16,716 nt of DNA, from assembly GCA_041736305.1 (NCBI GenBank), contig JBGSTX010000295.1, positions 1 to 16,716 of the forward strand. Direction: 5' to 3'. Source of the DNA: Oligoflexus sp. GTDB lineage: Bacteria > Bdellovibrionota_B > Oligoflexia > Oligoflexales > Oligoflexaceae. Below the pieces are notes generated by a model. The model was given only the letters and a program-made list of their open reading frames with translations, was not told the origin of the DNA and made no database searches. Shown in pieces: positions 1,156-16,716 of this stretch; position 1 is the stretch's first letter; every line of letters starts with the position of its first letter. Position numbers and translations under genes: made by a program.

Positions 1156-1169
1156 GCACCCGTGCCCGC
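1138..1169. terminator. GC-rich hairpin between convergent secDF and the 122-aa gene (possible terminator or mRNA 3' stabiliser)
   Basis: GTGGGCACCGGTGC-GTAG-GCACCCGTGCCCGC: 14-bp near-perfect stem with the secDF stop codon in the loop; no clear U-tract. Confidence 0.5.
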
Positions 1170-1194
1170 TCTAGGCATCACAAGTTCCTATCGA

Positions 1195-1563
1195 TTAGAG
1201 AAGCTCCATGTCCGTGATGGAGCTTCCAGATAGAATGTCTGAGTACTGGAAGTCTTTGGTTGGGATGACATCGTTCTTGCGTGAAGTAGATTTGAAAGTC
1301 TCTTGATAGACTGCGCATTCAATGTAGTCAAAAACGCCGGGAAAAGGATGATTGATGCATTCCATGACGGGTTCAACTTCGCCCTTCTTGCTAGGCTTCT
1401 TGATAGGCTTTTTGGGGCCTTTGGCCTTGAGATCCTCAGGGACTTGATCCTGAGCCAGATGCTTCTTCATGATGAGTCCGCAAAGGTTCTTGAAGTCAAT
1501 CGCCTTGGAGTCTTGATTATACTGACCATGGCGCACGAGGTGAGGACAACGCTTGCACAGCAT
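1195..1563 (-). CDS. Hypothetical protein, 122 aa, Cys-containing, possibly metal-binding
   Basis: ATG preceded by AGGAAAGG RBS; CKRCPH plus three more Cys; Lys/Pro-rich linker; upstream sigma70-like promoter. Confidence 0.75.
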   Translation of the reverse strand: MLCKRCPHLVRHGQYNQDSKAIDFKNLCGLIMKKHLAQDQVPEDLKAKGPKKPIKKPSKKGEVEPVMECINHPFPGVFDYIECAVYQETFKSTSRKNDVIPTKDFQYSDILSGSSITDMELL

Positions 1564-1678
1564 CCAGCAGCCTTTCCTAGCAATGCAGGCGACGCACGCG
1601 ACAATATAATTCTAAGACCTGCTGTCTCAGGCTAAGTGTCTACGCTGTCAACCATTAATTTTTCGATGGAGTAGGGTC

Positions 1679-1707
1679 ATCTTAGGCGAAGCCAAATAGC
1701 AGTGCAA
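1679..1707 (-). promoter_or_regulatory. Sigma70-type promoter for the 122-aa gene
   Basis: Minus strand TTGCAC-17 nt-TAAGAT, about 115 nt upstream of the ATG at 1563. Confidence 0.5.
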
Positions 1708-1886
1708 GGCGAAAATATTTGTAATTTTTGGGAAAATTCGTTTTAGCCCTCTTAGAAAAAGGGCCCCTTTCGCTGGATTATTAAGCCCTTATGACTTTGT
1801 TGCTCCGGCGATTCAAGAGTCCGCAAAAGGGCGGAGTTTGCCTAGAAATCTTGATGAGTATTAGTGGTTTAAAAGGTATTTCTTTT

Positions 1887-3272
1887 ATGGAATTCGATGC
1901 GCTATTTTCGAAACGATCGACGCATATCAAACCAGGCCTTGAGCGGATAGCTCGAAGCTATGAATATTTAGCTCGTCCTGCGAAAGATATTCCTTCGGTT
2001 CTCATCGGTGGCACCAATGGCAAAGGCAGCACGAGCGGGTTTCTCTGGTCACTCATTGCCGCCAACCAACTTGAAGCAGCGCTCTTCACCTCGCCTCATC
2101 TGGCCGCATTTTCTGAACGCTTTCAACTCTCATTACAGCCCACATCCGACGCAGAAATCTCCACTTACATAGAGCATTTGAAAGAAAGTCTAACGACTGA
2201 GCTTTATGATGAGCTGTCTTTTTTCGAGGCGACGACTCTGATCGCCTTTCAACTTTTCGCAGAGCGACAGGCGCGTTTTCAGGTTCTCGAAGTCGGCCTT
2301 GGCGGACGTTGGGACGCGACCAATATCAGCGATCCAGCTGCCTCTGTGCTGGTCAGCGTCTCACTCGATCATGCGGAATATTTGGGCAGTGATCTCGAAG
2401 GAATTCTCCGCGAGAAGCTCGGTATTATGCGCCAGGGCCGACCCTTTTTCTGGGGAGGCGGAGGCGAAATATTAGAACTGCCGCAGCATCGATCGATTAT
2501 CGAAGAGGAAGCTAAGGCTAAAGGGGCTCAGCTTATAGTCGCAGACGAGCACTTTGCATTTGACGAAGCCGCAGCGTGCATCCGACTTAATCTCCCCAAC
2601 CTAGCGCCGCTGACTCTAGCGTTGACCCCTCACTGGCAGGGGCTGCCCCGTTTTCTTTTGAAGAATCTAAGTCTCGCAGCCGCTGTTTACTGCTGGCTCA
2701 GCCAAAGAGAAAGTGCCTATGGGCTCTTGCCATTGGCTGAGGTCTGGGACAATTTTCTTGAGGGGAAACAGGCCAGTCCGGTAAGTCTGATTGGGCGCTG
2801 CCAGCGGCTCAGCGCGGGGCCTGGGTCACAGAAGTTCCTGGTAGACGTCTGTCACAATCCGGACGGAGCGCGGAACTTCGTTGCGTCCGTGAAGGCTCGG
2901 CGAGGAGAGCAGGGGCGTCCTCTCGGGGCTCTCGTTTCGGTTTTGCGCGACAAAGATTACGATCTTATCTTAGATATCTTGCGTTCTGCTTTTCAGCCTG
3001 TAATGCTCTTTGGCATCGAGCATACTCGAGCATGGGAGCCGGAGATCTTAGCGAGCCGACATCGTGATCTTCCCTTCTTTCCGAATTTTCAGGCAGCGTT
3101 GGATGCGCTGCAAGGGCAGAAAGGATCTTCAGAGCCGCGGCCCTGGGCTGTTTGCGGATCAGTATTAGCTGTAGGTCAGGTCCTGCAGAGTTTGGACGTG
3201 TCACCGAAGGACATGCATGTTGCGAGAGTTATTGGCGGTGATTGGCCTTGGGCTGATCTTCAGCAGTCTTAA
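1887..3272 (+). CDS. folC: Bifunctional folylpolyglutamate synthase/dihydrofolate synthase
   Basis: GGTNGKGST P-loop, FTSPHL, SFFEATT, LEVGLGGRWDATN, SLDHAEYLG, EKLGI, DVCHNPDG, DKD, CGS motifs. ATG 1887 (AAAAGGT upstream) fits better than 1791. Confidence 0.95.
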   Translation: MEFDALFSKRSTHIKPGLERIARSYEYLARPAKDIPSVLIGGTNGKGSTSGFLWSLIAANQLEAALFTSPHLAAFSERFQLSLQPTSDAEISTYIEHLKESLTTELYDELSFFEATTLIAFQLFAERQARFQVLEVGLGGRWDATNISDPAASVLVSVSLDHAEYLGSDLEGILREKLGIMRQGRPFFWGGGGEILELPQHRSIIEEEAKAKGAQLIVADEHFAFDEAAACIRLNLPNLAPLTLALTPHWQGLPRFLLKNLSLAAAVYCWLSQRESAYGLLPLAEVWDNFLEGKQASPVSLIGRCQRLSAGPGSQKFLVDVCHNPDGARNFVASVKARRGEQGRPLGALVSVLRDKDYDLILDILRSAFQPVMLFGIEHTRAWEPEILASRHRDLPFFPNFQAALDALQGQKGSSEPRPWAVCGSVLAVGQVLQSLDVSPKDMHVARVIGGDWPWADLQQS

Positions 3273-6200
3273 TAATCTCAGGGCACAGGAAGCTAGGAGC
3301 CCTAGTGAGAGTGAAATTCCTGACCTGGAACTTAATTCAGGTGAAGGTGTGCTCTACGATGCGCGCTCCTACGGCTTCGATCGTGGAGGGAATACCTATT
3401 TCTTCGACGGCGATGTGGTGCTTATCGGCGGTGGTTATGTCATAACCGCTGATAAAATAGTCGTCGAATACTTTAAAAAAGAAATGACGGCAAGCGGCCA
3501 CGTTCTCTTTATTCACCAAAATCAGATATTCACCGGCGAACAGGTTCACATTCAGTGGGATACCGGCGATTTTCGAATCAAAGAGGCGGTGCTCGTCGCC
3601 AATGACGCTAAAGAAATTGAAAAAGTCACCCGTCGCGTTCTAGGTCAGTCTGCTGAGGAGCTGAGCTACGAAACGGCGCGAGTCAAACGCTTGCAGGCCA
3701 TCGAAAAAGAAAAAGGCGATTTGAGGGAACTGTTTCGCCTGCAGCCTGGAGAAGAACCTGATCCAGCCACAGTGGGCTCCTACGCGCGTTTACTGGAACA
3801 GCAGAAACTCGTTAGGGAGAGCCAAGCACCGACTCAGGGTGAACGAGATCCGGAGCGCCGTCAGCGATATGAGCGCCGCCGAACGTTTTGGGAGAAGGCG
3901 AGAGCCGAGGCGGCGAAAGACGCCTTACCGCGCGAATTCTATTTCAAAATCGAGGGCGAAGTTCTGGAGCGTGTCGATGGTCATCTCTACCGAGCGAAGG
4001 ACGCGACCTTTACTCCTTGCTTCTGCGAAGCTGATGAGACGCCTGCTTGGGCTTTTCAAGCCGAAACGATCGAAGCGCAGCAAGAGGGTTACATTGATAT
4101 GGTTCATCCTATACTGAAGATCAAAGGCTTGCCTGTACTGTATCTGCCCTACTTGAAGCTCCCGCTGAAAGCCAAGCGACAGTCCGGCTTCCTCCCGCCT
4201 AGCGTGCAAACGGGCGAGGCGAAAAATGGTTTCGTCTATACCCAGCCGGTCTTCTTCGATATAGCTCCCAACGCTGACGCTACCCTGACCACCGATATAT
4301 TCCAGCGGCGCGGTACGCGGCTCGGGCTCGAGACGCGTTATGAGGCAAGGGCTTTTTCAGGATTTCGCTATCAGGTAGAAGGAATCCGGGATACCTCTTG
4401 GCTGCAGCTTGCCAATCAGCGCGAAGACCTTCTCCGCTATCATCTCGAAGAAAGTCCCTTCTGTGCAAGTGAAACAGATCTCATAGCCAGACAATTCTGC
4501 GAGCAGAAGGTGCGGGAAAATCTCGCATCCCCTTCCGATACGCAGCGGGGTAAGCAGGAATGGGAAGGGCGCTATTTTCTTGCACCCCGTCTTTCGCTGG
4601 TCAGCAACGGCAGAATAGTATCCGATCATCGTTATATCGAAGATCTCTATTTGCCCGAAAATTTCATCACAGCCTTTGCCAATTTAAACAATGCCACCCA
4701 GTTCTCAACAGCGAAAGGCAGTCTCAACTTCGATGGCAAAGACTTTTTTGCCTCGATCGGTAGCTCCTATGGTGACAATATTATCAGTGCCGAAAAATAT
4801 TCCGGGCAGCAGGCTCCGCTGATTTTCCAGCTGCAGTCTCGTTACTTTCGTCTGCTGCCTGACGGCATTCTGCCCATGCCGATTTACGCGGAACTTCAGG
4901 CTCGCTCGATCAGCATCGATGAGCAGCGATTCAGCGCCCGAGGACCTTTCAAAGTACAGGATATAAGCCTCGGCGATGGGCAATGGCAGCGCTATGCTCT
5001 GCAGCTGACGACTCCTTTGCTGAGCGATTCTATCGTGCGCATCGATCATTTTGCGGATGCGGAATTGCGCAGAATCGAGCATCAGGGTCTCGATAAGCGC
5101 AATAGCATGGTGCGCTCGTGGCGAACCGGTCTGACTCTCAATCTGCCCATCGATGGAACAGGTCCTCTCCCGGGCTTTTTGCAGTCTAAAAATTCTAAAG
5201 GAACAAGCTATGTCCAACACCTTATGAATTGGAGCCTAAGCGCTTCAGTTAGACCGGTAGTCATACGCGATGGTCCCTACGGTGACATCATCGATGGAAA
5301 GGGGGCGCCTCTAGTCTATTTTCCAAGCGATCGAAAGGTTCTTTATAGCGATGACCGCGACATCGCTGACGAAGATGTTATGGTCCCTCACCAAAGGATC
5401 ACTTTCAGTACCTTCCAGCGTTGGCAGACTTTCGATCGACTCTGGCAAACTCTGCCGGCTCAAGGGGAAACTAAGAACAAAGCCCTGAAGAGAAATCTCG
5501 ATGACTTGAAAGAGCAGGCCCTGCGCGAGCTGCAGGCAGTCAAGGACCAGCCGGTCAAGCGTCCCGAAGACATGTACAGTGAACAAGGGAGTGGCGAGGT
5601 TAAATGGTATGTGCCGCGCTATGCTTCGGTAGATCAGAATCGGGTCGAACCTCTGTGGTTCTCCGCTAGTATTAGCTACGATTATCAGCAGGAAAAACTG
5701 CGGCGGCAGCAGTTGGAGAAAAATGAAGAAATTGAACGCCAAGCGCAGGCAAGTGCCGATCCTGCTACCGCAGAAGCTGTGCGACAGAAAAAGATAGGGT
5801 ATTATGACTTGCCTGAGTCGTGGCAAGGACCTTTCGCCACTCTTGGCATGAACTACAAGGGTTTTTCTCTCTCCAGCGGACTCATCTATAACCTTTACGA
5901 AAGAACTAGCACTTCCCTTAGTTTTGCGTTAGGACTACCTCCTTTTTACAGCTCTCAGCTCGGTCTAGGGTACGTACTTGAGAAGACCCCAGAGCTCAAT
6001 ACCAGTACCAACACCTTTCTTTTTCGGCGCACTAAGACCACGACTCTGGGTTTTACGACGCGCTTGCTCCCCTACATTACTTTGGGGGCTAACCTCATCC
6101 GTAAGCAGGTGGATGATCAGAAAGGGCAGGTTCTGGCTAGTGCAGCTGATCAGAAGGTTCAGTATGGAACTTCCTATCAGTTGGCTTACGATGATTTATC

Positions 6201-6372
6201 AGGCTGCTGGGGCCTCCAGTTTCTTCGTGAAAAAGATTTGAATCAGAACGAAGAGGACGCCAACTATATCTTGCAGCTGGCAGTCATTTTTCTGGGGAAT
6301 CGGCGGTCGGGCGATATTTCTCCAGCTTTTGAGAAAGAGTTCGTTGGCGATCGTGGCCGGACCAATCCTTGA
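3217..6372 (+). CDS. lptD: LPS-assembly outer-membrane protein LptD (enlarged, 1051 aa)
   Basis: Signal peptide, OstA-like jellyroll (GDVVL..ITADKI..ASGHV), ATFTPC..PAW, VLYLPYL..KRQSGFLPP, PVFFDIAPNADATL, RGTRLGLETRY, C-terminal GCWG; located downstream of folC. Confidence 0.88.
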   Translation: MLRELLAVIGLGLIFSSLNNLRAQEARSPSESEIPDLELNSGEGVLYDARSYGFDRGGNTYFFDGDVVLIGGGYVITADKIVVEYFKKEMTASGHVLFIHQNQIFTGEQVHIQWDTGDFRIKEAVLVANDAKEIEKVTRRVLGQSAEELSYETARVKRLQAIEKEKGDLRELFRLQPGEEPDPATVGSYARLLEQQKLVRESQAPTQGERDPERRQRYERRRTFWEKARAEAAKDALPREFYFKIEGEVLERVDGHLYRAKDATFTPCFCEADETPAWAFQAETIEAQQEGYIDMVHPILKIKGLPVLYLPYLKLPLKAKRQSGFLPPSVQTGEAKNGFVYTQPVFFDIAPNADATLTTDIFQRRGTRLGLETRYEARAFSGFRYQVEGIRDTSWLQLANQREDLLRYHLEESPFCASETDLIARQFCEQKVRENLASPSDTQRGKQEWEGRYFLAPRLSLVSNGRIVSDHRYIEDLYLPENFITAFANLNNATQFSTAKGSLNFDGKDFFASIGSSYGDNIISAEKYSGQQAPLIFQLQSRYFRLLPDGILPMPIYAELQARSISIDEQRFSARGPFKVQDISLGDGQWQRYALQLTTPLLSDSIVRIDHFADAELRRIEHQGLDKRNSMVRSWRTGLTLNLPIDGTGPLPGFLQSKNSKGTSYVQHLMNWSLSASVRPVVIRDGPYGDIIDGKGAPLVYFPSDRKVLYSDDRDIADEDVMVPHQRITFSTFQRWQTFDRLWQTLPAQGETKNKALKRNLDDLKEQALRELQAVKDQPVKRPEDMYSEQGSGEVKWYVPRYASVDQNRVEPLWFSASISYDYQQEKLRRQQLEKNEEIERQAQASADPATAEAVRQKKIGYYDLPESWQGPFATLGMNYKGFSLSSGLIYNLYERTSTSLSFALGLPPFYSSQLGLGYVLEKTPELNTSTNTFLFRRTKTTTLGFTTRLLPYITLGANLIRKQVDDQKGQVLASAADQKVQYGTSYQLAYDDLSGCWGLQFLREKDLNQNEEDANYILQLAVIFLGNRRSGDISPAFEKEFVGDRGRTNP

Positions 6373-6422
6373 TTTCTCAAGCTAACGCTAAGAATTTTCA
6401 ACAAACCCTGGGAGGTTTTTCG

Positions 6423-7193
6423 ATGAAAAGAGTGGTACCAAATGCTGGACCAATCAAGTTGGAGGGTTTCAACAACCTCACCAAGGCCTTGAGCTTCAAT
6501 CTCTATGATTTCTGCATCGCGCGCAACGACGAGGAACGCGCAGCATACGTCAAATATATTCACGAACGTTTCAGTGCGAAACGAATCACAGAAATCCTCA
6601 AGGGCATCTGCGATATCATCGAAGCACAGGTCCTCGCGGTCTCCGACCAGGATTACGATCCCTGGGGCGCATCCTCGCTAGTGCTTATGAGCGATATCAA
6701 GGGCAGTGGCGTCGGCGATGTTAAGATGCACCTCGATAAGAGCCATATTTGTGCGCATACCTATCCTGATTTTCGGGTCAATGGCCAGGTTTGCTCCTTC
6801 CGCATCGACATCGACATCGCTACTTGCGGTGAGATCTCGCCTCTGCGGGCCTTGAACTTCATGTTCGAAGCCTTTGAATCAGACGTCGTCGTCGTCGACT
6901 ACGTGGTGCGCGGTTATACCCGCGACGAAGACGGACGTCGGGTCTATATGGACCACGAGCTCCGCAGCATTCAAGATTTCGTTAACGAGAATATTCTTGA
7001 CGACTATCACTGCATAGATATCGCCCTGCAGTCAGACAATATCTGGCAGACAAAGATGCTCAGGACTCGTATGGACGAGGCCTCCTACTTCATCGATAAG
7101 GAAAAAGTCGATCTGAAGAGCGAGGAAAGCCGCCGCTTTCTCGATATGGTCAAGAGCGAAATGCGCGGCGTAGTCTATATGTGGCCTGATTGA
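6423..7193 (+). CDS. speD: S-adenosylmethionine decarboxylase proenzyme (E. coli-type, class 1A)
   Basis: LEGFNNLTKALSF, QDYDPWGAS, HLDK|SHICAHTYP pyruvoyl cleavage site, TCGEISPLRALN, DYVVRGYTRD match E. coli SpeD. ATG 6423 follows GGAGG at 6411. Confidence 0.95.
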   Translation: MKRVVPNAGPIKLEGFNNLTKALSFNLYDFCIARNDEERAAYVKYIHERFSAKRITEILKGICDIIEAQVLAVSDQDYDPWGASSLVLMSDIKGSGVGDVKMHLDKSHICAHTYPDFRVNGQVCSFRIDIDIATCGEISPLRALNFMFEAFESDVVVVDYVVRGYTRDEDGRRVYMDHELRSIQDFVNENILDDYHCIDIALQSDNIWQTKMLRTRMDEASYFIDKEKVDLKSEESRRFLDMVKSEMRGVVYMWPD

Positions 7194-10057
7194 ATTTGTT
7201 TGACGAAGGAGGCGATAGCCTCCGGTTCCTTACTGAGACGTCCCCAAGGCTCTGCCGCGCTGCCTCTGCCTATCTCGGGTAGGTGCGTACAGAGGAAGAG
7301 TTTGAGCTCAGGGCAGAGAGCCCTGAGTTTTCGTAAAAACCCTGGACCATCTTCCTCCCCCTCCTCGAACAAGCCGTCACTTATCAGCGCGCGACAGTCA
7401 GCTAAGAGATCGGGATTCTCGTCCCATGCTTGCAGCATAGCTTTTGGCTCTGGGAAACAAGCTAGACTGAGGTGAGACTCTGCAGCCGAGGCTTGCCAGA
7501 TATCCGTAAAAAGCGGGTCGTCTTCGACGAGGATGAGCTGCACTCGCCGGGCTAAAAAGCTTTGGCATAAGTCGATCAGCGCGGTTTTTTGCAAGGGCTT
7601 GGGGAAAAAGACGTCAGCACCGACCTTTAAGGCTGCCTCGCGAATGGCAGAGCTACTGCGATGTGAGTGCAAGGCAATGCGGGCATGAGCTTGCAGCTTG
7701 CGAAACTGGGGAATCCAACTGAGTCCATTGCTCGAGCCGAGCTGATAGTCAATAATAATAAGATCAAATCGTTCGGTGCGGGCCCTTTCGAGCGCGGCTT
7801 CGGGATGCTCATGGCTTTCAAGCGAGACGCCGAATGAGGCCTCCTCCAAACTCTCGACCAATTCTTTGCCATACAGCAGATCCAGAGGATCATCGTCGAC
7901 CCAAAGCAAGGACAGTTTCCGCTTGTAGGAAGAGGGTAGCGGCGCGGACGTCGGCGCTTGCGGGCTGATGGTACTCCAGATCGCGGCGAGTCTATCCAGA
8001 AGCTCAGGAGGCTGGATGTCTTTCCGATAGGAACTCGGGAGAGTCACGATGAAGCTGGTTCCCTTCTCGCTATCAGACTGACAAGCTATTTGTCCACCAT
8101 GCGCGAGGACAAACTTCTTGACGATAGCGAGGCCGAGTCCTGTGCCACCTTCGGTGTAGAAGGCTTCGAAAATGCGTTTGCGCTTTTCTTCGCCGATGAA
8201 ACTGCCTGAGTTATGGATGACAATCTCTATCCAAGTCCGTCCGCCTTCGCTGCGATCTTTAGTCGAAATCGAGATGCGCCCTCCGTCGGGAGTAGCCTGA
8301 ACCGCATTATTCAAAATGTTGTTGAAAATGCGGATCAGCTTGTAGCTATCCGCTTCTAGCATGAGTCGGTGCTCCAGCTCACAGGTCAAAGCGATCGACT
8401 TCTTGCTGGGAAGAAGCAGGCGCAAACTCTCCTCCAGCGCGGTCAACGGACTCATAGCTTCTGTCAGAGTCTCGCCAGTGGCCCCCATCTCAAGTATGTC
8501 TGTAATCATTTCATTAACGGTATGGGTCATGCGCCGGACGTGCGGCAGATACTGCTTAGCCAGTTCTTTGAGTTTCTCCGGATCTTCAGTAGTCGCAAGT
8601 AGACTGAGCACGCCCTCGAGAGTCCCGAAAGGACGACGGATATCGTGGGCGAGCATCTGTACTGCTGATCCAAGAGCGCTGACTGTCGCTTCGCGCAGCT
8701 TTTTCGACTCCTGTCGAGGACGACTCTCGCCTACTGAATTGAGAATGAGCGAGCCAAGGGCAGGTAAATCGCTCAGTAGCATGCGATTGCTAAAGGCTAG
8801 CAGATTGCAGATGCCGAGAGGGAGAAACTGCGGATTGTGAACGAGAGCGTGCAGCCAGTCGCGAAGACGACGGTCGCGCTGGATAGTGCTAGGGTCGAGG
8901 AGAAGCTTTTCAAGGAAAGGTCGTTGCTCGACGCCACCAATAGCTTGCCGGTAAAGGAGACGTAAACCCAGCTCAGCGGCAGAGAGACTGGCCTCGCGGC
9001 TGTAGTTAGGCAGCGCAAAAATCCAACCGTCTACACCGTCGCCTTCAGCTTGAAAGTGCAGCTCAAGCTGAAAATGATGAGTAGCGAAAGCCGCTAGGTC
9101 CTCAAGAAAAACTTGCGAACAGACCCCCGGATCGTAAGCGAACGTCCAGGACTTCCGCTGCAAGTGAGGATCTGACGGCAAAGGATGGATGTCGGCATCA
9201 ACTGCGAAACTATGCTCGCTGTAGAGTTCGCCAAGTCGTCGAAGATTCCAGGCATTGCGGCGCTGAGCAAATCCCTGCAGAGCCGTCCGAAGGGTCTCAC
9301 TGCCCTGGAAGCGGTTCCGCAGCCAGACAGCAAGCTGCATCTCAGGCCGCAGGTTTAGGTTCATGACTCCGCTCAGTGAGCTGGTCTGAGGTGCCCTGCT
9401 GAGAGTACTCGGAAAAATTGCAAGGTAAGCAGCCGAGTCATGACTCTGGTCTAGTGGAAGCTGCTCAAGGGTCTGCACCACGACTTCCTCGTAGATCCGA
9501 GAGTTTCGGGGCTCATCGGGGTGGAGCTTGAGCCGAAGGGAGCTGGGCGACTGGCTCGACACAAACCAAGGGCCGCTGCTGATCCCACTAGGCCGATAGA
9601 TGCTGCACTCAGGTAGGGCCAGACGTTCGAGGAGATCCGGCACTAGACCGTGCAAGAGGATTTCAAAGCGATAGCGGGAATGGAGCTTGAAACTTTTTTC
9701 AGAGCCTAAGCCCTGAAAGCGCAGAAGCCTTCCGAGTTGCGATGCGCTGCTCGCTCGCCTTGCCACCCGCAAAAGGCAGGATATAACGTCAGCTGCACAT
9801 ATCTCATCACCTTGATGGAAGCGTCGACCTTTTTTAATCTGTAGTCTGTAGCTGCCATCTTCTTTACTTATGGAACATGATTCGAGCAGAGATCGATCGG
9901 TCTGCCCACCCTGGCGGAGCTCGACCAAGCGAATAGCGCAGTTGGTCCAATAAAACTCTTCTATCCAACTGTCGGCGGCAGGAAGGCTTTCTGGGTCGAG
10001 ATGAGGGAGACGAGGAAGATAGAGGTGAAGAATGTGATCTCGGGTTTCAAGGAGCAT
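7175..10057 (-). CDS. Hybrid sensor histidine kinase: N-terminal family-5 solute-binding-like domain, HisKA, HATPase, two receiver domains
   Basis: H-box LAHDIRRPF, N-box RIFNNILNNAVQA, F-box RIFEAFYT, G2 GGTGLGLAI. REC1 VDDDP/IIIDYQ/FPKP and REC2 VEDDP/LISD. N-terminal LLESCSISKEDGSYRLQIKKGRRFHQGDEICAADV resembles the SBP_bac_5 signature. Confidence 0.88.
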   Translation of the reverse strand: MLLETRDHILHLYLPRLPHLDPESLPAADSWIEEFYWTNCAIRLVELRQGGQTDRSLLESCSISKEDGSYRLQIKKGRRFHQGDEICAADVISCLLRVARRASSASQLGRLLRFQGLGSEKSFKLHSRYRFEILLHGLVPDLLERLALPECSIYRPSGISSGPWFVSSQSPSSLRLKLHPDEPRNSRIYEEVVVQTLEQLPLDQSHDSAAYLAIFPSTLSRAPQTSSLSGVMNLNLRPEMQLAVWLRNRFQGSETLRTALQGFAQRRNAWNLRRLGELYSEHSFAVDADIHPLPSDPHLQRKSWTFAYDPGVCSQVFLEDLAAFATHHFQLELHFQAEGDGVDGWIFALPNYSREASLSAAELGLRLLYRQAIGGVEQRPFLEKLLLDPSTIQRDRRLRDWLHALVHNPQFLPLGICNLLAFSNRMLLSDLPALGSLILNSVGESRPRQESKKLREATVSALGSAVQMLAHDIRRPFGTLEGVLSLLATTEDPEKLKELAKQYLPHVRRMTHTVNEMITDILEMGATGETLTEAMSPLTALEESLRLLLPSKKSIALTCELEHRLMLEADSYKLIRIFNNILNNAVQATPDGGRISISTKDRSEGGRTWIEIVIHNSGSFIGEEKRKRIFEAFYTEGGTGLGLAIVKKFVLAHGGQIACQSDSEKGTSFIVTLPSSYRKDIQPPELLDRLAAIWSTISPQAPTSAPLPSSYKRKLSLLWVDDDPLDLLYGKELVESLEEASFGVSLESHEHPEAALERARTERFDLIIIDYQLGSSNGLSWIPQFRKLQAHARIALHSHRSSSAIREAALKVGADVFFPKPLQKTALIDLCQSFLARRVQLILVEDDPLFTDIWQASAAESHLSLACFPEPKAMLQAWDENPDLLADCRALISDGLFEEGEEDGPGFLRKLRALCPELKLFLCTHLPEIGRGSAAEPWGRLSKEPEAIASFVKQIQSGHI

Positions 10058-10361
10058 TGTTCAGTCCGTTCTCACGATTCCCAAGGAGCGGTTCTATCAC
10101 GAGAGTTTGGAGAGCTTCGAGCTTACTCAGGTGCTTATCGAAGGCAGCCTGTTTGAGAGGATCTATCGAGTCTTCTCCGCCTTTGAGACCCTTCTGCGCG
10201 AGGTAGCGGAGCGTGCGGATAGCACCTATGTAATCGTGATAGAGACGCCGACGAGCTTCCGCACCGGCAGGCCCGGCTGCTAAATCGATCGAGGCTTCAA
10301 TTCGCCCGTCGATCGCTTCGTTGAAGCGCCAAGTTCCGAAAGGTGGACGAGTCGTTTCCAT
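10047..10361 (-). CDS. Hypothetical protein, 104 aa, possible stand-alone DHp/histidine phosphotransfer protein
   Basis: AGGAGGG RBS; TAATG coupling to the upstream gene and 11-nt overlap with the kinase start; helical with H-box-like RRRLYHDYIGAIRTL. Confidence 0.75.
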   Translation of the reverse strand: METTRPPFGTWRFNEAIDGRIEASIDLAAGPAGAEARRRLYHDYIGAIRTLRYLAQKGLKGGEDSIDPLKQAAFDKHLSKLEALQTLVIEPLLGNRENGLNNAP

Positions 10362-11881
10362 TAGGCACCCTCCTGCGGTATAGAGTCTCCGCTGACATTG
10401 ACCATCGCTTTTAACTCAGTCGCACTCACCAAATCTTTCTTGATGAGATCCTGCAGCTTCGTTGAAAGGGTCGAGCGCGGGATGAGGAGAAGGCGTGCGA
10501 GCTGCCTGAGGGTCATGCGGCCTTCTTTTGCATAGCAGCGTCGAATAAGACTTAATAGGAGCTGCATGCTCAGTCGCTCGAAGGGAATTTGCGCTTCTCT
10601 ATCCCAGTCGAGAATTATCTGCTCTTTGCTAGAGACGGAGGCAGAGTTTGAAACTTTTTCTTTTTCTTCTGCTCCTGCTTCTGTAGCAGCTTCTAAGGCA
10701 GTCATCTGGGACCAGATGTAAGCGGGGATGGCCGAAGGACTCATAAGGCCCCCGTAAGCGTGCTCGGTCATGGCGCGAAGACAGTTTCTAAGTTCACGAA
10801 TATTGCCGTGGCGCCAATCGTATTGCTTTAATACCTGAACTGTCGCTGCCGCAATGCTGTAAGGCCCTCCCCTCATAGTTTGACAGAAGAGCGGTACCAG
10901 CTCGTCGAGCTCATCCTTCCGCGTATGGAGCGGTGGCAGGTGAATGACGGCTTCGCAGAGCCGCTGCCAGAGATCTCGGCGAAATAAGCCCTTTTCCACC
11001 AGACTTTCTAGGTTTTCGTTGGTAGCTGAGAGCACGCGAACGCTAATTTTCTTTGGCATGGAAGCGCCGACCGGCCGCAGCTCTTGATTTTCGAGAACAC
11101 GCAGCAAGGCCACCTGCGTTGCAGCACTGAGAGTGGCCACTTCATCGAGAAAGACCCAGCCACCGTCAGCCTGTTCAAAAAGTCCAATCTTGCTCTGCTG
11201 AGCGCCCGTAAACGCTCCCTTAACGTGACCGAAAAGTTCAGATTCGATAAGTCCTGCGGGAAAAGTTCCGCAGTGTATGCGGATGAAAGGGAGTCGCCCA
11301 GCAAAATGCGCCGCAAACATATCGGCAACGACCTCTTTACCCGTACCTGTTTCTCCAAAGATATGTATTGAACTCAGGGCTGAGGATATGAGGCGCGGAA
11401 TGCGTTCGCTGAGTTCACGCGCTGTCCGACCCGCGACATGAGCTAGTCCTGCTGCGGTCGCTAGGGAAGCGGCATTGCCGTGCTTGCGCTTTTCCTGCTC
11501 TTGCCGCCTGAGATATTCTTGCTGCGCGGCGAAGATCCGGGCCCGCATTCCCTGCTCGTCCTGACCTTTGAAGAGGAAATCGTCGGCTCCGCGAGCAATG
11601 CAGCTGCGAACCGTTTGCGTATCGTGCAGGTCAGAGCACATGACGATCATTGTGCCGGGAAGGCGACTTCTCAACTGCTTGGCCAAACCGCGGCCGTCCT
11701 CTTCACCCTCAGCCAGAAAGATATCCAAGATCACGACGGCGGGATCTGGAGCGCGGTCTATAGCTTGCCAAAGTTCGGCGGGACTCGTGAACGAACGGAC
11801 GGCTTCACCGAGGATCTCTCGGACCTGAGCCAGGAAAAGCTCATCATCATCGAGGTGATAAATAGGGCTAAGGGGGTGCAT
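10361..11881 (-). CDS. Sigma54-dependent response regulator (NtrC/AtoC-family bEBP: REC-AAA+-HTH)
   Basis: REC (LDDD, VILD, FLFK), Walker A GETGTGKE, ESELFGHVKGAFTGA, Walker B FLDEV, SATN, FRRDLWQRL, GNIRELRN, C-terminal HTH LARLLLIPRSTLSTKL. Confidence 0.95.
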   Translation of the reverse strand: MHPLSPIYHLDDDELFLAQVREILGEAVRSFTSPAELWQAIDRAPDPAVVILDIFLAEGEEDGRGLAKQLRSRLPGTMIVMCSDLHDTQTVRSCIARGADDFLFKGQDEQGMRARIFAAQQEYLRRQEQEKRKHGNAASLATAAGLAHVAGRTARELSERIPRLISSALSSIHIFGETGTGKEVVADMFAAHFAGRLPFIRIHCGTFPAGLIESELFGHVKGAFTGAQQSKIGLFEQADGGWVFLDEVATLSAATQVALLRVLENQELRPVGASMPKKISVRVLSATNENLESLVEKGLFRRDLWQRLCEAVIHLPPLHTRKDELDELVPLFCQTMRGGPYSIAAATVQVLKQYDWRHGNIRELRNCLRAMTEHAYGGLMSPSAIPAYIWSQMTALEAATEAGAEEKEKVSNSASVSSKEQIILDWDREAQIPFERLSMQLLLSLIRRCYAKEGRMTLRQLARLLLIPRSTLSTKLQDLIKKDLVSATELKAMVNVSGDSIPQEGA

Positions 11882-12027
11882 GCGATCCCTTCGGAAAGCG
11901 TTTTCTATACCCCAGAAATGGCCGAAATCGGGACAAGTTGCAAGTCGTAGGTCTTGCTTATGGCCCAGATTTGTCCTCCGCGGCCGGACTATAAATCATA
12001 AGTACATGTAATAATTGGAATTAAAAT

Positions 12028-12045
12028 TTGGCACGAAAGGTGGAA
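12028..12045 (+). promoter_or_regulatory. Sigma54 (-24/-12)-like promoter
   Basis: TTGGCACGAAAGGTGGAA: perfect -24 TGGCACG, with GG instead of GC at -12; AT-rich upstream; about 30 nt before the ATG at 12077; divergent from a bEBP gene. Confidence 0.65.
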
Positions 12046-12076
12046 TAGGGGCTTTACCTAACTAAGGAGTTCCCAG

Positions 12077-12256
12077 ATGAGAAAGTTAAATTCTATCCGC
12101 CTCTACCTCTTCAAATTGCACCAGATCAGACAAATCGCTGCCGCTAAAGCCCGGAAGAAAAGTTTCTACTACCGTGCAGATCGGGAGAAGTTTGAATCGG
12201 TTCAAGGGGCAATCCGCGACCGGCTAGCTTGGGAGAACGGCCGCCATGCTAGCTGA
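12077..12256 (+). CDS. Small basic protein, 59 aa (MRKLNSIRLYLFKLHQIRQIAAAKARKKSFYYRADREKFESVQGAIRDRLAWENGRHAS)
   Basis: Translated by hand; absent from the ORF track. TAAGGAG RBS at 12063-12069, ATG 12077, TGA 12254-12256; flanked by a promoter and a terminator. Confidence 0.72.
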   Translation: MRKLNSIRLYLFKLHQIRQIAAAKARKKSFYYRADREKFESVQGAIRDRLAWENGRHAS

Positions 12257-12278
12257 AACAAAAAGCTCAAAAGGCAAG

Positions 12279-12315
12279 AACGAGGCTCAGCTCAAAAGGC
12301 TGGCCTCGTTTTTTT
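12279..12315 (+). terminator. Rho-independent terminator (possibly bidirectional)
   Basis: AACGAGGC(T)CAGC-TCAAAAG-GCTGGCCTCGTT followed by a T run; lies between the 59-aa ORF and the convergent lipoprotein gene. Confidence 0.8.
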
Positions 12316-13339
12316 ATGGGATCTGGTTTTGTTGGTTATTATCGGTGTCAGAATCCGGAAGAGGCGGTCCAAGTGGGTCCGTAATCGGTTCAGACCCGAT
12401 ATTCTCGAGCCGGAGGCTATAGGCCGGGCTGAAGGTTTGCTTATCCTGATCACTGAACTGATAGAAAATTTCCGCTGGCGTATTGCTGCTGATAGGAATT
12501 TGAATCTGCCCGTCCAGACTCATCCAGTTATTGCTGAAGCTTAATTCTTCCTCACTCAAAGCTAGCCGCACCCAACGACACATGGCATTTCCGCTCATCG
12601 AAAAATTCAACGATTTAATATTTGGATCATCGGTGCGAAAGCTCGTAGGAATTTCCAGGCGACCATCAACGATCAAGCGATCGTAAAGACGAAAATCTCT
12701 ATTGTCGTCACTTGTGCCCACATTCCAGATGCCTTTAGTTTGTACATAGCCTTTTAGGGAAATACGAACGGGTAGCAGGCTTTCGGATGGAGCATAAAGC
12801 CTAAAATTTCCGTCAAGATCGGTCGTAGCAGCCAAGCGGCCCACATGAACCAGCGCACCTTCTGCGGGTGAATCGCCCTCTGCGAAAGACTTCGGAGCCA
12901 TGACCTGACCGCTGATGACAACCGGGGTCTGGAGTCTGATGATCCCCAAATCCATGTTACCGACTTCTACTGCTTTTAGCTTATCGTAGACGGCTGATTC
13001 CCCAGGGAAGCCCGCGTTGGTAAAATAGAGACGAAGAGGCTGACCGAGACCACCGTAGCGAACCTTGAGCTCGTCCTTACGTTCACTGGACCAGCTGAAT
13101 GAAAAACGCCCGTCTGCATCGGTGATCTGTTCAGGAGTAGTCTCCTGCTCAACAAATACGCCTATCCCTGCAGCGGCTTGCCCGAAACTGTCTTGTACCT
13201 GTCCGCTCACGCTGAGGGGAACATCTTGGGATTTGACAGCGGCCTTAGGATTTTTCAGGCAGGCTCCCCCTTGCAGAGCGAGGATTAGGCCCGAAGCCTG
13301 GAACATCCTGCTAAAAAAAATCAGTGTTTGACTCCGCAT
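12314..13339 (-). CDS. Putative lipoprotein with two carboxypeptidase-regulatory-like beta-sandwich domains
   Basis: GAGGAG RBS; signal with lipobox-like LQGGAC; repeats VSGQVQD..ITDADGRFSF and ISGQV..PAEGALV..TTDLDGNFRL..KGY. Confidence 0.75.
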   Translation of the reverse strand: MRSQTLIFFSRMFQASGLILALQGGACLKNPKAAVKSQDVPLSVSGQVQDSFGQAAAGIGVFVEQETTPEQITDADGRFSFSWSSERKDELKVRYGGLGQPLRLYFTNAGFPGESAVYDKLKAVEVGNMDLGIIRLQTPVVISGQVMAPKSFAEGDSPAEGALVHVGRLAATTDLDGNFRLYAPSESLLPVRISLKGYVQTKGIWNVGTSDDNRDFRLYDRLIVDGRLEIPTSFRTDDPNIKSLNFSMSGNAMCRWVRLALSEEELSFSNNWMSLDGQIQIPISSNTPAEIFYQFSDQDKQTFSPAYSLRLENIGSEPITDPLGPPLPDSDTDNNQQNQIP

Positions 13340-13396
13340 GACCGGGGCTCCTCAAGAGAATAGACGCGTTTTTGCGAAAGCTTCAATCTCAATTAC

Positions 13397-13413
13397 TGCA
13401 AGGATCTGACCAA
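13397..13413 (-). promoter_or_regulatory. Sigma54 promoter for the lipoprotein gene
   Basis: Minus strand TTGGTCAGATCCTTGCA = GG-N10-GC with TTGCA at -12, about 58 nt upstream of ATG 13339. Confidence 0.65.
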
Positions 13414-13451
13414 GCGGCAGAGCCGTGGCGCCAGGAAAATTTTGATGAGAT

Positions 13452-13480
13452 TTGATAGGATTAGCCGCTGCTGCTAAACT
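13452..13480 (+). promoter_or_regulatory. Sigma70-type promoter for the polysaccharide export operon
   Basis: TTGATA-17 nt-TAAACT with extended -10 TGn. Confidence 0.55.
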
Positions 13481-13563
13481 TAGAAGCAAAGCATCATGAC
13501 CAATATCTAGACGCCTCGCTGCGATGCATGGGGAACGGTCGGGTAACAGGAAGGAGCATAGAT

Positions 13564-14400
13564 ATGCTGGGCTTGAGCCTCTTCTCTCGCCGTACCAGAG
13601 CTCGGACTACGGGTCTGATCCTGATTTCGGCAATTCTCCTAGCGTCATGCAACAAGTCGGAAGATGAGACCACCTGCAATCTCGACGCTAACGGTCTAAA
13701 AAGCGAAGGCTGGAACAGTAGCGAACTCAAAGATCTGGAATTATCATTTATTTTCCTCAAGGGACCTTCAGGCGTCTCTGCCGACATTGGCGACGTGCTA
13801 CAACTCAATGGGATATCGGCCTTATTCTTTGTGCAGGGTTCTGCCATCGAAGGTAATAAGGACCAACTGCCGATTCTCAAGGACCAGGGCCACCTCATCG
13901 GCAATGGTGGCTATCGCTATCAAGATCTGACTAAAGCCGAACACCCCGTGCTCGAGCTCAGAACCACAGACGGGCTCATCACGCCGTACGTGACCGGCAA
14001 CATGTTTCTCTTTCATGCGCCGCTGAAATCCTTTAACGAGCAGTCCGCGGCTCTTTACCGGGCCAATGGCCTCGGCAAGTACGTTGGACCCATTTTCGAC
14101 GACACCACGCCGAGCGAAACGTTTCGCTATGACGAGCAGTGTTGGGTCGACAATCTGACGCCAGCCGTATGTGCACAGCAGTACTTCGATGAGCTCAAAC
14201 GTATAGGGAAGGGCATCGTGGCTTTCAACGACACGCAGCCGAAATCCCTCGAAATGCTCAACGAGTTGCTTCCCCAATTGAAGACCTTTGGGTTCACCTT
14301 TGTTCGCATCGACCAAATTCCGAGCATCCGCAGTGCCCTGACTCGTGCAGGCGCCCTCGTCGATGCAACGGGATCCAGTTCTTGCGATGATTACGATTGA
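13564..14400 (+). CDS. Polysaccharide deacetylase (CE4/NodB)-fold lipoprotein, catalytic motifs degenerate
   Basis: GGAAGGAG RBS before ATG 13564; lipobox LLASC; NodB scaffold ALFFVQG, GHLIGN, KGIVAFND, LPQLKTFGFTFVRI. Confidence 0.75.
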   Translation: MLGLSLFSRRTRARTTGLILISAILLASCNKSEDETTCNLDANGLKSEGWNSSELKDLELSFIFLKGPSGVSADIGDVLQLNGISALFFVQGSAIEGNKDQLPILKDQGHLIGNGGYRYQDLTKAEHPVLELRTTDGLITPYVTGNMFLFHAPLKSFNEQSAALYRANGLGKYVGPIFDDTTPSETFRYDEQCWVDNLTPAVCAQQYFDELKRIGKGIVAFNDTQPKSLEMLNELLPQLKTFGFTFVRIDQIPSIRSALTRAGALVDATGSSSCDDYD

Positions 14401-14410
14401 GGAGGCTGCC

Positions 14411-16006
14411 TTGTCGCTTCACTTAGGGTTCCTTCGCTCTCTCCGAGCCACAAGCTACGGAGCCTGCTTTATCATCGGGCTCTGGCAAGGAGCCGTGCTC
14501 GAGGCGAAAGAACTTCCGCCGGCGAATGGTATCGCCTGCGATGCCGCAAGCTGGGCGCTCTATATTGCCAAGGCCCAGAGTTTGGCTAGCGAAACCGAAA
14601 GCATGGGCCGCACGATTATCACTTGCCCAAGCGGAGACTACCGTCAGGCCGGTCTTTACTGGTTGGCTTTTTACCTGCATATGACACAGCAAAACGCTGC
14701 TTTCAGTCAGACTTTCAAGCTTCTGCCAGCACCTACAGGCTCTGACAAGAATATGGTGCGCTATCGGGCATGGAATGGCGACACAGAGACTTTGAAAAGC
14801 AAAGTTCAGAATAGCGAAAAAGGCTATTTCGATGACCCCGAGATGACATTGGCCCTAGCGAGAGCTTCAATGCGAGCTGGGCTTTATAAAGATGGTCTTC
14901 AAAACTTTGAAATATACTTAAAACAAAGAGAGAGCGACGAAGCTGTCGAGGCTGAGCGACTCTTTGCCTATCTCTGGGCTGGAGACAAACAGGCGGCGCG
15001 CCTGCAAATCGGTTCCATGCGACGCTATGCCGTTAGCCCTTATCTGCGCCAGTCGCTTGATCGAGCCGAAGCCCTGCTAGGGCCAGAGGACGTCATCGCT
15101 TCGAGCGAATGGCTCGGCAGCAAGGGTACCTGGTTGCGAATCAGCGGCAACGAATATAGCGACAACCGAGGTTTTGAACGCCGAGGAATCGGACTTGCAT
15201 ACAATGGACCCGTGGAAATCGGCGTCGATGCCTTTGAATCGAGGCACCCCCTCGACCCCGAAACTGAAAATCAAGCCTCCCTAAACCTTGGCAAGACTTT
15301 GAGCGGCAGCTCTTGGAAAGCAGGAGCACGCGTCGGCTACTTTACAGTCGGCCCTCAAAATTTCACGGGCCGCCTCCAAGCCGAATGGTTGCCTTTGGAT
15401 TCTCTACTCGTCGGAGTTGCCGCCCAACGCGAAGCAATAGCGGTCCTTGATCGGCCACTGGTCGGTGCGAGGCGCGGGGTCATGCGTGACACAGGAGAGT
15501 TTCTCTTAGGTGGTTTTCGCCGCAGAATAAGCTTCAAGGCAGCTTTCAACCGAGACGATGAAAAGGCATTTTTCGAGCTTTACGAAGCTGAGCTGCGCAT
15601 AGGTGCCTTGTTAAATCGGGAGACTGATCTGGGCTTTGGATTTTTCATCCCCATTTCCTATCAGCATCGCCCGCTTCCCAGCCAAGATTTAGTGACTTTT
15701 CCGAAAGAGGCCCGGACTGGCCTCGGCTTGCGCTTGGCGCTTGGTGATGGCGCTACCCTGCGGGTTGGCACGGAAGCTCTGATCGAAACCGTGTTCCGCA
15801 GCTACTTCATCGAGCCTGACGATTTCGAACAGCTGCTGTCAGCGCGTGTTCGCAGCGATATTCGTTACTATACGAGCTCGTCCTTTTGCTACTTTCTCAA
15901 CGCTGAACTGAAGCTCACCGAGCGCAATCCATTCGAAAATGAGAACGAGAGAAAGACCGCATTCACCATCGGTATTGCTCTCCGCGATACAGAGCAACAG
16001 AAATAG
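14411..16006 (+). CDS. Secreted TPR-containing outer-membrane beta-barrel protein (probable polysaccharide export porin)
   Basis: GAGGAGG RBS then in-frame TTG at 14411; signal peptide ending VLEA; helical TPR-like N-half (LALARASMRAGLYKDGLQNFEIYL); C-half of alternating-hydrophobic beta strands; directly upstream of an OPX gene. Confidence 0.6.
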   Translation: MSLHLGFLRSLRATSYGACFIIGLWQGAVLEAKELPPANGIACDAASWALYIAKAQSLASETESMGRTIITCPSGDYRQAGLYWLAFYLHMTQQNAAFSQTFKLLPAPTGSDKNMVRYRAWNGDTETLKSKVQNSEKGYFDDPEMTLALARASMRAGLYKDGLQNFEIYLKQRESDEAVEAERLFAYLWAGDKQAARLQIGSMRRYAVSPYLRQSLDRAEALLGPEDVIASSEWLGSKGTWLRISGNEYSDNRGFERRGIGLAYNGPVEIGVDAFESRHPLDPETENQASLNLGKTLSGSSWKAGARVGYFTVGPQNFTGRLQAEWLPLDSLLVGVAAQREAIAVLDRPLVGARRGVMRDTGEFLLGGFRRRISFKAAFNRDDEKAFFELYEAELRIGALLNRETDLGFGFFIPISYQHRPLPSQDLVTFPKEARTGLGLRLALGDGATLRVGTEALIETVFRSYFIEPDDFEQLLSARVRSDIRYYTSSSFCYFLNAELKLTERNPFENENERKTAFTIGIALRDTEQQK

Positions 16007-16026
16007 GTGAGGAGTAGAAAAAAGGC

Positions 16027-16629
16027 ATGAGCTGCAAATCGACCAGTCTCGTTCTGCTGCTGAGCTCAGCGATCACTTCCTGCAGCTACAAGATTCCAGC
16101 CGAAGACATCGCCCAGCTCCAAGCGGGAAAGACCTTCAACCGGCAGGGTAGCTTCCTCATCGGCGCAGGCGATGAGATCGACATTTTCGTCTTCGGCGAG
16201 GAAAAGCTCAGCGGACGTTTCACCGTCTCGCCAACAGGCGTGCTGGCCTTTCCCTTGCTAGCCCCTATTGCTGTCACTGGGATGACGACCGCGCAGCTGA
16301 CCAAGCGGCTCGAAACAGGGCTCGACTCCATAGTCAAAAATCCGCGCGTAGTCTGTTCACTCCTCGGCATCCGTAGCTTTCAGGTCTACTTTGGAGGAGA
16401 AGTGAAGCGCGTCGGTGCCGTGCCCCTGACGAGCGAGACGACGTTCCTCCAGGCTCTGACGCTGGCGGGAGGCATTACTGAATTTGCTAGCGGACGCATC
16501 GTCCTGGTCCGACAACTCGGCAACAATAAGGTCCGGCGCTTCGCGATTCGCTACGATGATATTCTGAGCGGCGAACGCTATGTCGACACTATTTCACTCG
16601 AAAGCGGCGATGTGATATTTGCTGAGTAA
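16027..16629 (+). CDS. wza: Polysaccharide export protein OPX/Wza family lipoprotein (short, Poly_export + one SLBB)
   Basis: GAGGAG RBS; lipobox AITSC; IGAGDEIDIFVFGEEKLSGRFTVSPTG..FPL..GMT Poly_export motif; GEVKRVG..QALTLAGG SLBB; ends LESGDVIFAE. Confidence 0.9.
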   Translation: MSCKSTSLVLLLSSAITSCSYKIPAEDIAQLQAGKTFNRQGSFLIGAGDEIDIFVFGEEKLSGRFTVSPTGVLAFPLLAPIAVTGMTTAQLTKRLETGLDSIVKNPRVVCSLLGIRSFQVYFGGEVKRVGAVPLTSETTFLQALTLAGGITEFASGRIVLVRQLGNNKVRRFAIRYDDILSGERYVDTISLESGDVIFAE

Positions 16630-16657
16630 ACGCCCTCTGCGAAAGAAAGAGTCCAGC

Positions 16658-16716
16658 ATGAATCAGCCCCTTCCCCCTCAGCAGGGGACCGATCAGGGCC
16701 ATTGGCGGTCCCTCCG
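16658..16716 (+). CDS. Start of next ORF (truncated by window edge); unidentifiable, Wzc-like only by context
   Basis: ATG 28 nt after the OPX stop, purine-rich upstream, open to the end (MNQPLPPQQGTDQGHWRSL). Confidence 0.35.
   Translation, partial: MNQPLPPQQGTDQGHWRSL

Follow-up and report, generated by a model that had tools for sequence, protein, structure and literature searches.

A hybrid histidine kinase of Oligoflexus with a leaderless N-terminal family-5 solute-binding fold as its likely cytoplasmic sensor

Among the ligand sensors of cytoplasmic transcription factors (LacI, LysR and SgrR types), binding-protein folds are the most common, and a few kinases (BvgS type) are known to use them in the periplasm. 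A contig of Oligoflexus sp. (JBGSTX010000295.1 of assembly GCA_041736305.1, positions 1 to 16,716; this 16,716-nucleotide stretch is hereafter called the window) raises the question of whether such a fold can also be coupled directly to a histidine kinase inside the cell. The open reading frame (ORF) at 7175..10057 on the (-) strand (2,883 nt, 960 aa) encodes, in this order, a fold of the family-5 solute-binding proteins (SBPs), a dimerization and histidine phosphotransfer (DHp) hairpin, a HATPase_c domain, a receiver (REC) domain and a REC-like domain. The 5′ part of the ORF, 8720-10057, corresponds to residues 1-446, which are referred to here as the clamp. The original prediction, made from the sequence alone, described the first ~445 residues as a family-5 solute-binding-like domain that is used as the cytoplasmic sensor of a hybrid kinase. 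The motifs that it quoted were found in the translation (RLVEL at residues 43-47, LLESCSIS at 57-64, DGSYRLQIKKGRRFHQGDEICAADV at 67-91, LERLALPECSI, SGPWFV at 161-166 and LVHNPQFLPL at 405-414), and together with family profiles and fold matches they confirm the observation; sequence and structure prediction, as far as they reach, support this reading of the kinase. We consider it likely that ORF 7175-10057 encodes a soluble, cytoplasmic hybrid histidine kinase in which the family-5 clamp is the sole input module.

The N-terminal domain (8720..10057, (-) strand) is, as judged from profiles and predicted structure, a complete, leaderless and strongly diverged clamp of the family-5/cluster-C type that spans residues 1-446. 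On the single kinase sequence, the Pfam profile SBP_bac_5 (PF00496) gave an E-value of 8.7e-5 and 22.2 bits (the cut-off is 32.4 bits) and covered only residues 57-181, so the assignment was decided by the relatives of the protein and by structural comparisons rather than by its own marginal match. Among 23 fused relatives that were scanned with SBP_bac_5, 17 scored above the Pfam cut-off, 4 scored below it, and 2 gave no match. A profile that was built only from fused proteins (25 sequences) matched AapF (PDB 7kz8) with an E-value of 2.2e-22, with profile positions 26-446 aligned to chain residues 32-484, and the same profile matched DppE (1e-16) and NikA (3e-16) in the PDB. A profile of the N-terminal domain alone, from 9 genomic loci, gave 14 PDB matches at E ≤ 1e-3, all of them family-5 binding proteins. 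Residues L44, R71, G83, S127, R130, E132, L146, G162, L176 and P413 of the clamp are invariant in the family.

The AlphaFold2 (AF2) model of residues 1-446 had a mean predicted local distance difference test score (pLDDT) of 89.3 and a predicted template modelling score (pTM) of 0.88; the alignment from which it was built also included three free-standing binding proteins. A Foldseek search with this model returned 167 PDB matches at E ≤ 1e-3 (the best was 7kz9_B, with an E-value of 2.4e-20 and a query template modelling score, TMq, of 0.70), and the top matches, among the matches listed, were all cluster-C binding proteins. With VIA-align, the model was superimposed on AapF with a Z-score of 24.1 and a root-mean-square deviation (rmsd) of 4.0 Å for 414 of the 446 residues (model range 5-446), and on NikA with a Z-score of 23.8; a Z-score of at least 8 was obtained for 171 chains. 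AapF, NikA, MoaA and CntA were the best structural matches. Both programs matched the domain to SBPs end to end. The model is closer to the liganded structures of AapF and NikA (TMq 0.70-0.71) than to the unliganded structures 4oer, 4toz, 2noo and 1uiu (0.54-0.63).

The same arrangement recurs in a small group of proteins. An exhaustive phmmer search with residues 1-446 against 1.84 billion representatives identified 28 proteins at E ≤ 1e-3, and 23 of these are kinases of 784-1077 aa that have the same N-terminal domain and repeat the domain order of the 960-aa kinase. The fused lineages are mutually 18-57% identical. As a single ORF the fusion is also present in 8 other genomes, one of which is a single-contig genome (G073). 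Within the phylum, matches were found in 15 of 131 genomes when the window's own genome was counted (12 of 83 among genomes of good quality); without the window's genome, they occurred in 9 of 21 genomes of family f1, 2 of 12 of f7 and 3 of 33 of f19, and in none of the other 16 families. The named members ('Oligoflexus sp.', 'Pseudobacteriovorax sp.' and an Oligoflexaceae metagenome-assembled genome, MAG) belong to the Oligoflexia of the Bdellovibrionota. A locus scan with the single protein retrieved 2 loci, one from the Oligoflexaceae MAG and one from a Spirochaetota MAG. The latter (contig L029) is a weak match with 25% identity over residues 57-153.

The public names of the two source-named fused relatives are generic ('ATP-binding protein' and 'response regulator'). 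A profile search for longer proteins that contain the N-terminal domain yielded 6 sequences, all of the same family, and no other output domains were found, which is weak evidence as this search used a word index. Residues 1-700 matched only plain HisKA/HATPase_c clusters in the ESM Atlas (score 0.83, below the useful range). The fusion of SBP_bac_5 to a kinase appears to be rare as far as was seen in the search of 1.84 billion representatives, and independent fusions of this kind may exist in other lineages. No paper on a fusion of a family-5 SBP and a histidine kinase was found in the full-text literature, which leaves subscription journals and supplements outside its coverage. The view that the architecture is unusual was thus upheld by its ~23 clusters among the representatives, by its generic public names and by the lack of a paper in this literature. 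The fusion joins known parts in an arrangement and a cellular location for which no description was found, and it is confined to a small, little-studied clade.

The remainder of the protein has the parts of a hybrid kinase. Pfam placed HisKA at residues 463-524, HATPase_c at 570-675 and a receiver at 718-829, all above the cut-off. After the last strand of the clamp (residues 411-423) comes a linker of ~25 residues with a conserved SNR motif, which leads directly into the His471-bearing helix of the DHp. No transmembrane (TM) segment, HAMP domain or PAS domain was found between the clamp and the DHp. The DHp/HisKA helical hairpin (8450..8719, (-) strand, residues 447-536; HisKA 30.3 bits) contains the H-box AHDIRRPF, and its phospho-acceptor His471 (codon 8645-8647, (-) strand) aligns with the H-box histidines of ThkA and ZraS; the H and D of the box are invariant in the family alignment. 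The HATPase_c domain (8033..8350, (-) strand, residues 570-675; 83.7 bits) resembles those of NtrB, AtoS and ZraS. The catalytic core is nearest to ThkA (3a0r, E 5.6e-21) and then to ZraS (E 2.5e-19), with which it shares the N-S-G form of the G1 region, and the best NCBIfam model for the kinase was AtoS (123 bits, compared with an equivalog cut-off of 646). The first receiver domain (7571..7906, (-) strand, residues 718-829; Response_reg 63.3 bits) has D721/D722, D770 and K820. The C-terminal 118 residues (843-960, encoded by 7178..7531 of the (-) strand) had no Pfam match on their own. They are probably a second, diverged receiver, to which the family-conserved D846/D847, D894 and K943 point (columns 1092, 1139 and 1193 of the fused-family alignment); two REC stretches were also seen in relatives P0008 and P0023.

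The location of the protein was judged from Kyte-Doolittle hydropathy, with a threshold of 1.6 for 19-residue windows, and from comparison with relatives. No 19-residue window of the 960-aa kinase reached 1.6; the maximum was 1.32 at residue 826, inside the REC domain. The highest value N-terminal to HisKA was 1.26 at residue 411. In the AF2 model this segment forms the last β strand of the clamp, and its counterpart in solved binding proteins is their C-terminal end. The N-terminal 12-residue hydropathy was 0.67, compared with 1.67-2.68 in all six other SBP_bac_5 ORFs of the same genome, two of which have lipobox-like leader ends (...AC). An in-frame stop precedes the start codon of the ORF, with no other start codon in between, and the first 11 nt of the ORF lie within the upstream gene. 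In 23 of 25 fused proteins the N-terminal 12-residue hydropathy was also below 1.6, and in the two exceptions, P0017 and P0024, the peak falls on β strand 1. The start of every fused relative falls at one aligned position, 5-15 residues ahead of this strand, and the free-standing SBP matches P0029 and P0033 carry leaders.

With hydropathy values below the threshold and no hydrophobic leader, the prediction that a signal peptide, a lipobox and a TM helix before HisKA are all absent held. With no membrane span between them, the clamp and the ATP-dependent kinase core would share one compartment, the cytoplasm. Of the marks of a transport-type SBP, the clamp shows neither a leader (by hydropathy) nor linkage to a permease or ATPase of the ATP-binding cassette (ABC) type; Pfam detected no ABC transporter domain in any of the window's 11 main ORFs. 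Free-standing relatives of the N-terminal domain without a hydrophobic leader were also seen, namely P0031 (464 aa; N-terminal hydropathy 0.69) and P0028 (96 aa), and these could be a cytoplasmic version that occurs on its own or the result of truncated gene calls.

The kinase gene is the last gene of a conserved operon. The order regulator, ~100-aa protein, kinase was kept in all 8 loci of the phylum that were fetched, in which the flanking genes differ, so that only these three genes are conserved across loci. The regulator (10361..11881, (-) strand, 506 aa) contains a REC domain with D53, a σ54-type AAA+ domain and a C-terminal winged helix-turn-helix (wHTH) domain. Its Pfam matches were Sigma54_activat (173.5 bits), REC (42.9 bits) and a weak MarR-type wHTH, and its motifs include Walker A at residues 176-183 and GAFTGA at 222-227. 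The combination of a REC domain, a GAFTGA-bearing AAA+ domain and a DNA-binding domain is that of an NtrC-type enhancer-binding protein, as read from the sequence; the score with the NCBIfam model ntrC was 247.9 bits, below the cut-off of 558.6. The genome contains rpoN. The phospho-sites and catalytic motifs of kinase and regulator look intact in the translations (H471, D770, D53, GAFTGA and Walker A).

Between regulator and kinase, and overlapping the kinase start by 11 nt, lies the gene for a 104-aa protein of no known family (10047..10361, (-) strand). It is conserved at this position in 9 of 9 loci, with the window included; in the 8 fetched loci it was detected by BLAST in 7 and by its position in the eighth. 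The invariant residues are H42, D43, A47, R49, A55 and K57. In the predicted structure (pLDDT 78), three short strands are combined with a helical hairpin, and His42 is located on helix 1, an outline reminiscent of a free DHp-like hairpin. The protein had no NCBIfam match, and its Pfam matches at E ≤ 10 were confined to scattered, unrelated families. An hhalign comparison with the kinase's own DHp paired the two histidines but was not significant, with a probability of 0.17% (E 0.35). Foldseek found no match for the model at E ≤ 1e-3, and the best VIA Z-score was 8.1, with the DHp domains of DesK and GacS at 6.9 among many unrelated helical hairpins. For the complex of two copies of the 104-aa protein and kinase residues 700-960, the predictions had a median score of 0.18 (runs of 0.44, 0.18 and 0.12; the mark was 0.32). 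The positive signals for a role in phosphotransfer are limited to the invariant H42-D43 on helix 1 and the position of the gene, and we regard the protein as a candidate phosphotransfer or regulatory partner.

Divergently from the operon, a σ54-type -24/-12-like box (TGGCACGAAAGGTGGA; 12029..12044, (+) strand) is followed 33 nt downstream by a basic small ORF of 59 aa (12077..12256, (+) strand), which is a candidate output gene. Of 9 loci, 7 (the window, L020-L023, L025 and L026) show the same combination ahead of their regulator gene, as TGGCA[CT]-N5-NTG and then a basic ORF of 43-59 aa 46-88 nt downstream; three of the 7 come from a single genus and do not count as independent cases. The small ORFs of related loci have the motif FFY..EN..F.Q..D..RAR in common. 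Locus L027 has a similar small ORF without the box, and no such ORF was found in L024. It is the placement of the box across loci, and not a scan of the window by itself, that is informative. The divergent small ORF is a likely output gene of the module.

Taken as a pathway, these parts suggest the following scheme. An intracellular small molecule would bind in the cleft between the two lobes of the clamp, and closure of the clamp would act on the DHp helices by way of the hinge strand, altering autophosphorylation at His471. From there, phosphate could be passed directly to Asp53 of the σ54 activator, with the C-terminal receivers acting as a sink or brake, a route that is proposed because the kinase core resembles those of AtoS, ZraS and NtrB. 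Alternatively, it could be relayed from His471 to Asp770, then to a histidine carrier, for which the 104-aa His42-Asp43 protein is a candidate, and then to Asp53. We give the direct and the relay route about even odds. The activator would then switch on the divergent σ54 promoter ahead of the small basic ORF.

The clamp probably senses a molecule inside the cell. The nearest subfamilies by NCBIfam and by structure are GsiB, NikA, CntA and AapF (NCBIfam matches of the 9 N-terminal domains were GsiB 6, NikA 3, Opp5A_nikA 2, CntA 2, Opp4A 1 and DppA 1), which is a weak lead to a putative ligand that is short and peptide-like, opine-like or a metal chelate, rather than a long oligopeptide of the kind bound by OppA. 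The invariant S127, R130 and E132 could form a family-specific ligand or interface site.

Several observations weigh against a cytoplasmic ligand-sensing kinase that acts through this module. The clamp of the window's kinase is strongly diverged and its SBP_bac_5 score stays under the Pfam cut-off; phmmer with the single sequence against all PDB chains gave nothing significant (best E 0.5), and an NCBIfam scan of the window's own N-terminal domain gave 0 matches. The absence of a leader and of TM segments in the kinase was judged from hydropathy only, and in 6 of 25 fused relatives the hydropathy exceeds 1.6 in a 19-residue window, the positions of which are scattered; those of P0024 (2.05 at residue 424) and P0032 (1.81 at residue 406) lie just before the kinase, where they coincide with the aligned terminal β strand of the clamp. 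Residues S127, R130 and E132 are on a strand that aligns with non-conserved positions of NikZ-II and AapF and may thus belong to an interface instead of a ligand site, and the predicted cleft may be filled or degenerate. On the output side, the box is imperfect at -12, and a σ54 consensus scan of the window alone was at chance level (7 matches, with 7.97 expected). The 104-aa protein showed no Hpt or HisKA signal, and 26 ordinary Hpt domains, all encoded on other contigs of the genome, could serve as carriers instead.

The Pfam score below the curated cut-off would be in keeping with a resemblance to SBPs that arose by chance or from low complexity, or with an assembly or frameshift artefact that joined two genes. 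This explanation has practically no weight, as the profile, Foldseek and VIA matches are highly significant and run end to end, and the fusion is found as a single ORF in 23 independent clusters and 8 other genomes (single-contig G073 among them). The hydrophobic segments of P0024 and P0032 (2.05 and 1.81), just before the kinase core, and the fact that family-5 binding proteins are normally exported would fit a sensor domain outside the cytoplasm, with a mis-called start codon, non-classical export or a membrane segment, in which case the protein would be an ordinary periplasmic-sensor kinase. We think this very improbable: the start codon follows an in-frame stop and lies in an 11-nt overlap, the aligned start position is shared by all relatives, the kinase's own 19-residue segment just before the core reaches 1.26 and is modelled as the terminal β strand, and without a membrane span export would carry the ATP-dependent core outside as well.

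A more substantial rival holds that the clamp has been retained as a scaffold that binds no small molecule and serves instead in protein interaction, in dimerization or in fixing the state of the kinase, with the 104-aa protein, the small σ54-dependent product or another cellular protein as possible partners. The strong divergence of the domain from transport binding proteins, the location of the invariant S127, R130 and E132 on a strand where NikZ-II and AapF show no conservation, and the co-conservation of two small proteins with the kinase would all agree with such a role; however, the whole two-lobed fold with its hinge strands has been kept over 446 residues in lineages that are 18-57% identical, which would be costly for a scaffold, and ligand binding is thought to be part of all known roles of the fold, SgrR-type regulators included. 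On balance, we regard the scaffold as unlikely. It would be a decidedly bolder proposal that the module is a self-contained cytoplasmic circuit of a new kind, in which the clamp recognizes a peptide or small protein encoded at the locus itself (either the σ54-dependent basic product of 43-59 aa or, in the ~100-aa protein, its variable N-terminal part) and the His-Asp hairpin protein is a new class of histidine phosphotransfer protein between the kinase's receiver and the σ54 activator, and we consider this improbable. The peptide-binding ancestry of the fold, the two co-conserved small proteins and the absence of a transporter nearby make such a circuit compatible with the data, and none of them supports it directly. 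The preferred reading therefore remains a kinase with a ligand-binding family-5 clamp in the cytoplasm.

In the kinases BvgS and EvgS, tandem Venus-flytrap domains of family 3 (type II, amino-acid-type) lie in the periplasm and precede a TM helix and a PAS domain. In common with them, the Oligoflexus protein combines a binding-protein fold and a hybrid kinase in one chain, and the C-terminus of the clamp runs into the signalling helix. It differs in having a single family-5 domain, no leader, TM, PAS or HAMP segment, and a wholly cytoplasmic prediction. AapF, NikA, CntA, GsiB, DppA and OppA share the fold of the clamp throughout the domain (Z-scores of 21-24), and their signature region YRLQIKKGRRFHQGDEICAADV is present in it; AapF binds the signal molecule HEHEAA. 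The periplasmic family-5 proteins are exported, free-standing and ~500 aa long, whereas the clamp of the kinase comprises ~446 aa, is leaderless and fused, and has no transporter genes nearby. Free SBP_bac_5 proteins deliver ligands to ABC permeases or stimulate membrane receptors, according to the available text of PMC8050422, and the portion of PMC9602780 that was available states in general terms that SBP Pfam domains are also sensor domains of cytosolic and transmembrane signalling proteins. A fusion of family 5 and a kinase is not named in the available portions of either source.

The closest known cytoplasmic use of the family-5 fold, compared here only through the shared Pfam family, is in SgrR and DsvR, in which a leaderless fold is likewise the presumed sensor of a regulator. 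In these proteins, which consist of a helix-turn-helix and SBP_bac_5, the inducing ligand is still debated, according to the part of bioRxiv 10.64898/2026.04.01.715812 that was available. Their DNA-binding domain is N-terminal to the clamp, whereas in the kinase the clamp is N-terminal and feeds into DHp, HATPase_c and two REC domains. No SgrR-named NCBIfam model was among the matches of the nine N-terminal domains, and all six matched families are transport binding proteins. With respect to signalling, the system resembles AtoS-AtoC, ZraS-ZraR and NtrB-NtrC in that the kinase core is nearest to AtoS, ZraS and ThkA and the partner is an NtrC-type protein with GAFTGA; unlike those pairs, it has a hybrid kinase with two C-terminal receiver-type domains, another sensor, and an additional gene for a ~100-aa protein between regulator and kinase. 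CrdS/CrdA was also considered as a precedent and rejected, as the SBP_bac5 protein there is the product of a separate gene next to it and CrdS itself contains two TM segments (available text of PMC3147164).

Other features of the window were noted outside this module. A convergent ORF of 341 aa (12314-13339, (-) strand) encodes CarboxypepD_reg-like domains and a hydrophobic N-terminus that ends in ...LQGGAC, and its product is possibly a lipoprotein. Between this ORF and the small ORF lies a GC-rich inverted repeat (CGAGGC...GCCTCG) with flanking A/T runs that by eye resembles a two-way terminator. An ORF of 1051 aa (3217-6372, (+) strand) had only a weak LptD_2 match of 30 bits, and an ORF of 553 aa (14345-16006, (+) strand) without a Pfam match is located among polysaccharide deacetylase and export genes.

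If the reading is true, a leaderless family-5 clamp placed on the helix of a histidine kinase would be a third arrangement of binding-protein sensors, next to the cytoplasmic transcription factors and the periplasmic-sensor kinases. It would provide a simple, membrane-free system in which to study how closure of a clamp switches a kinase, and, because the pockets of family 5 accept peptides, opines, metal chelates and sugars, possibly a compact chassis for biosensors. For the poorly studied Oligoflexia, it would define a conserved signalling module of four genes that consists of a σ54 activator, a His-Asp mini-protein, the kinase and a small σ54-dependent ORF.

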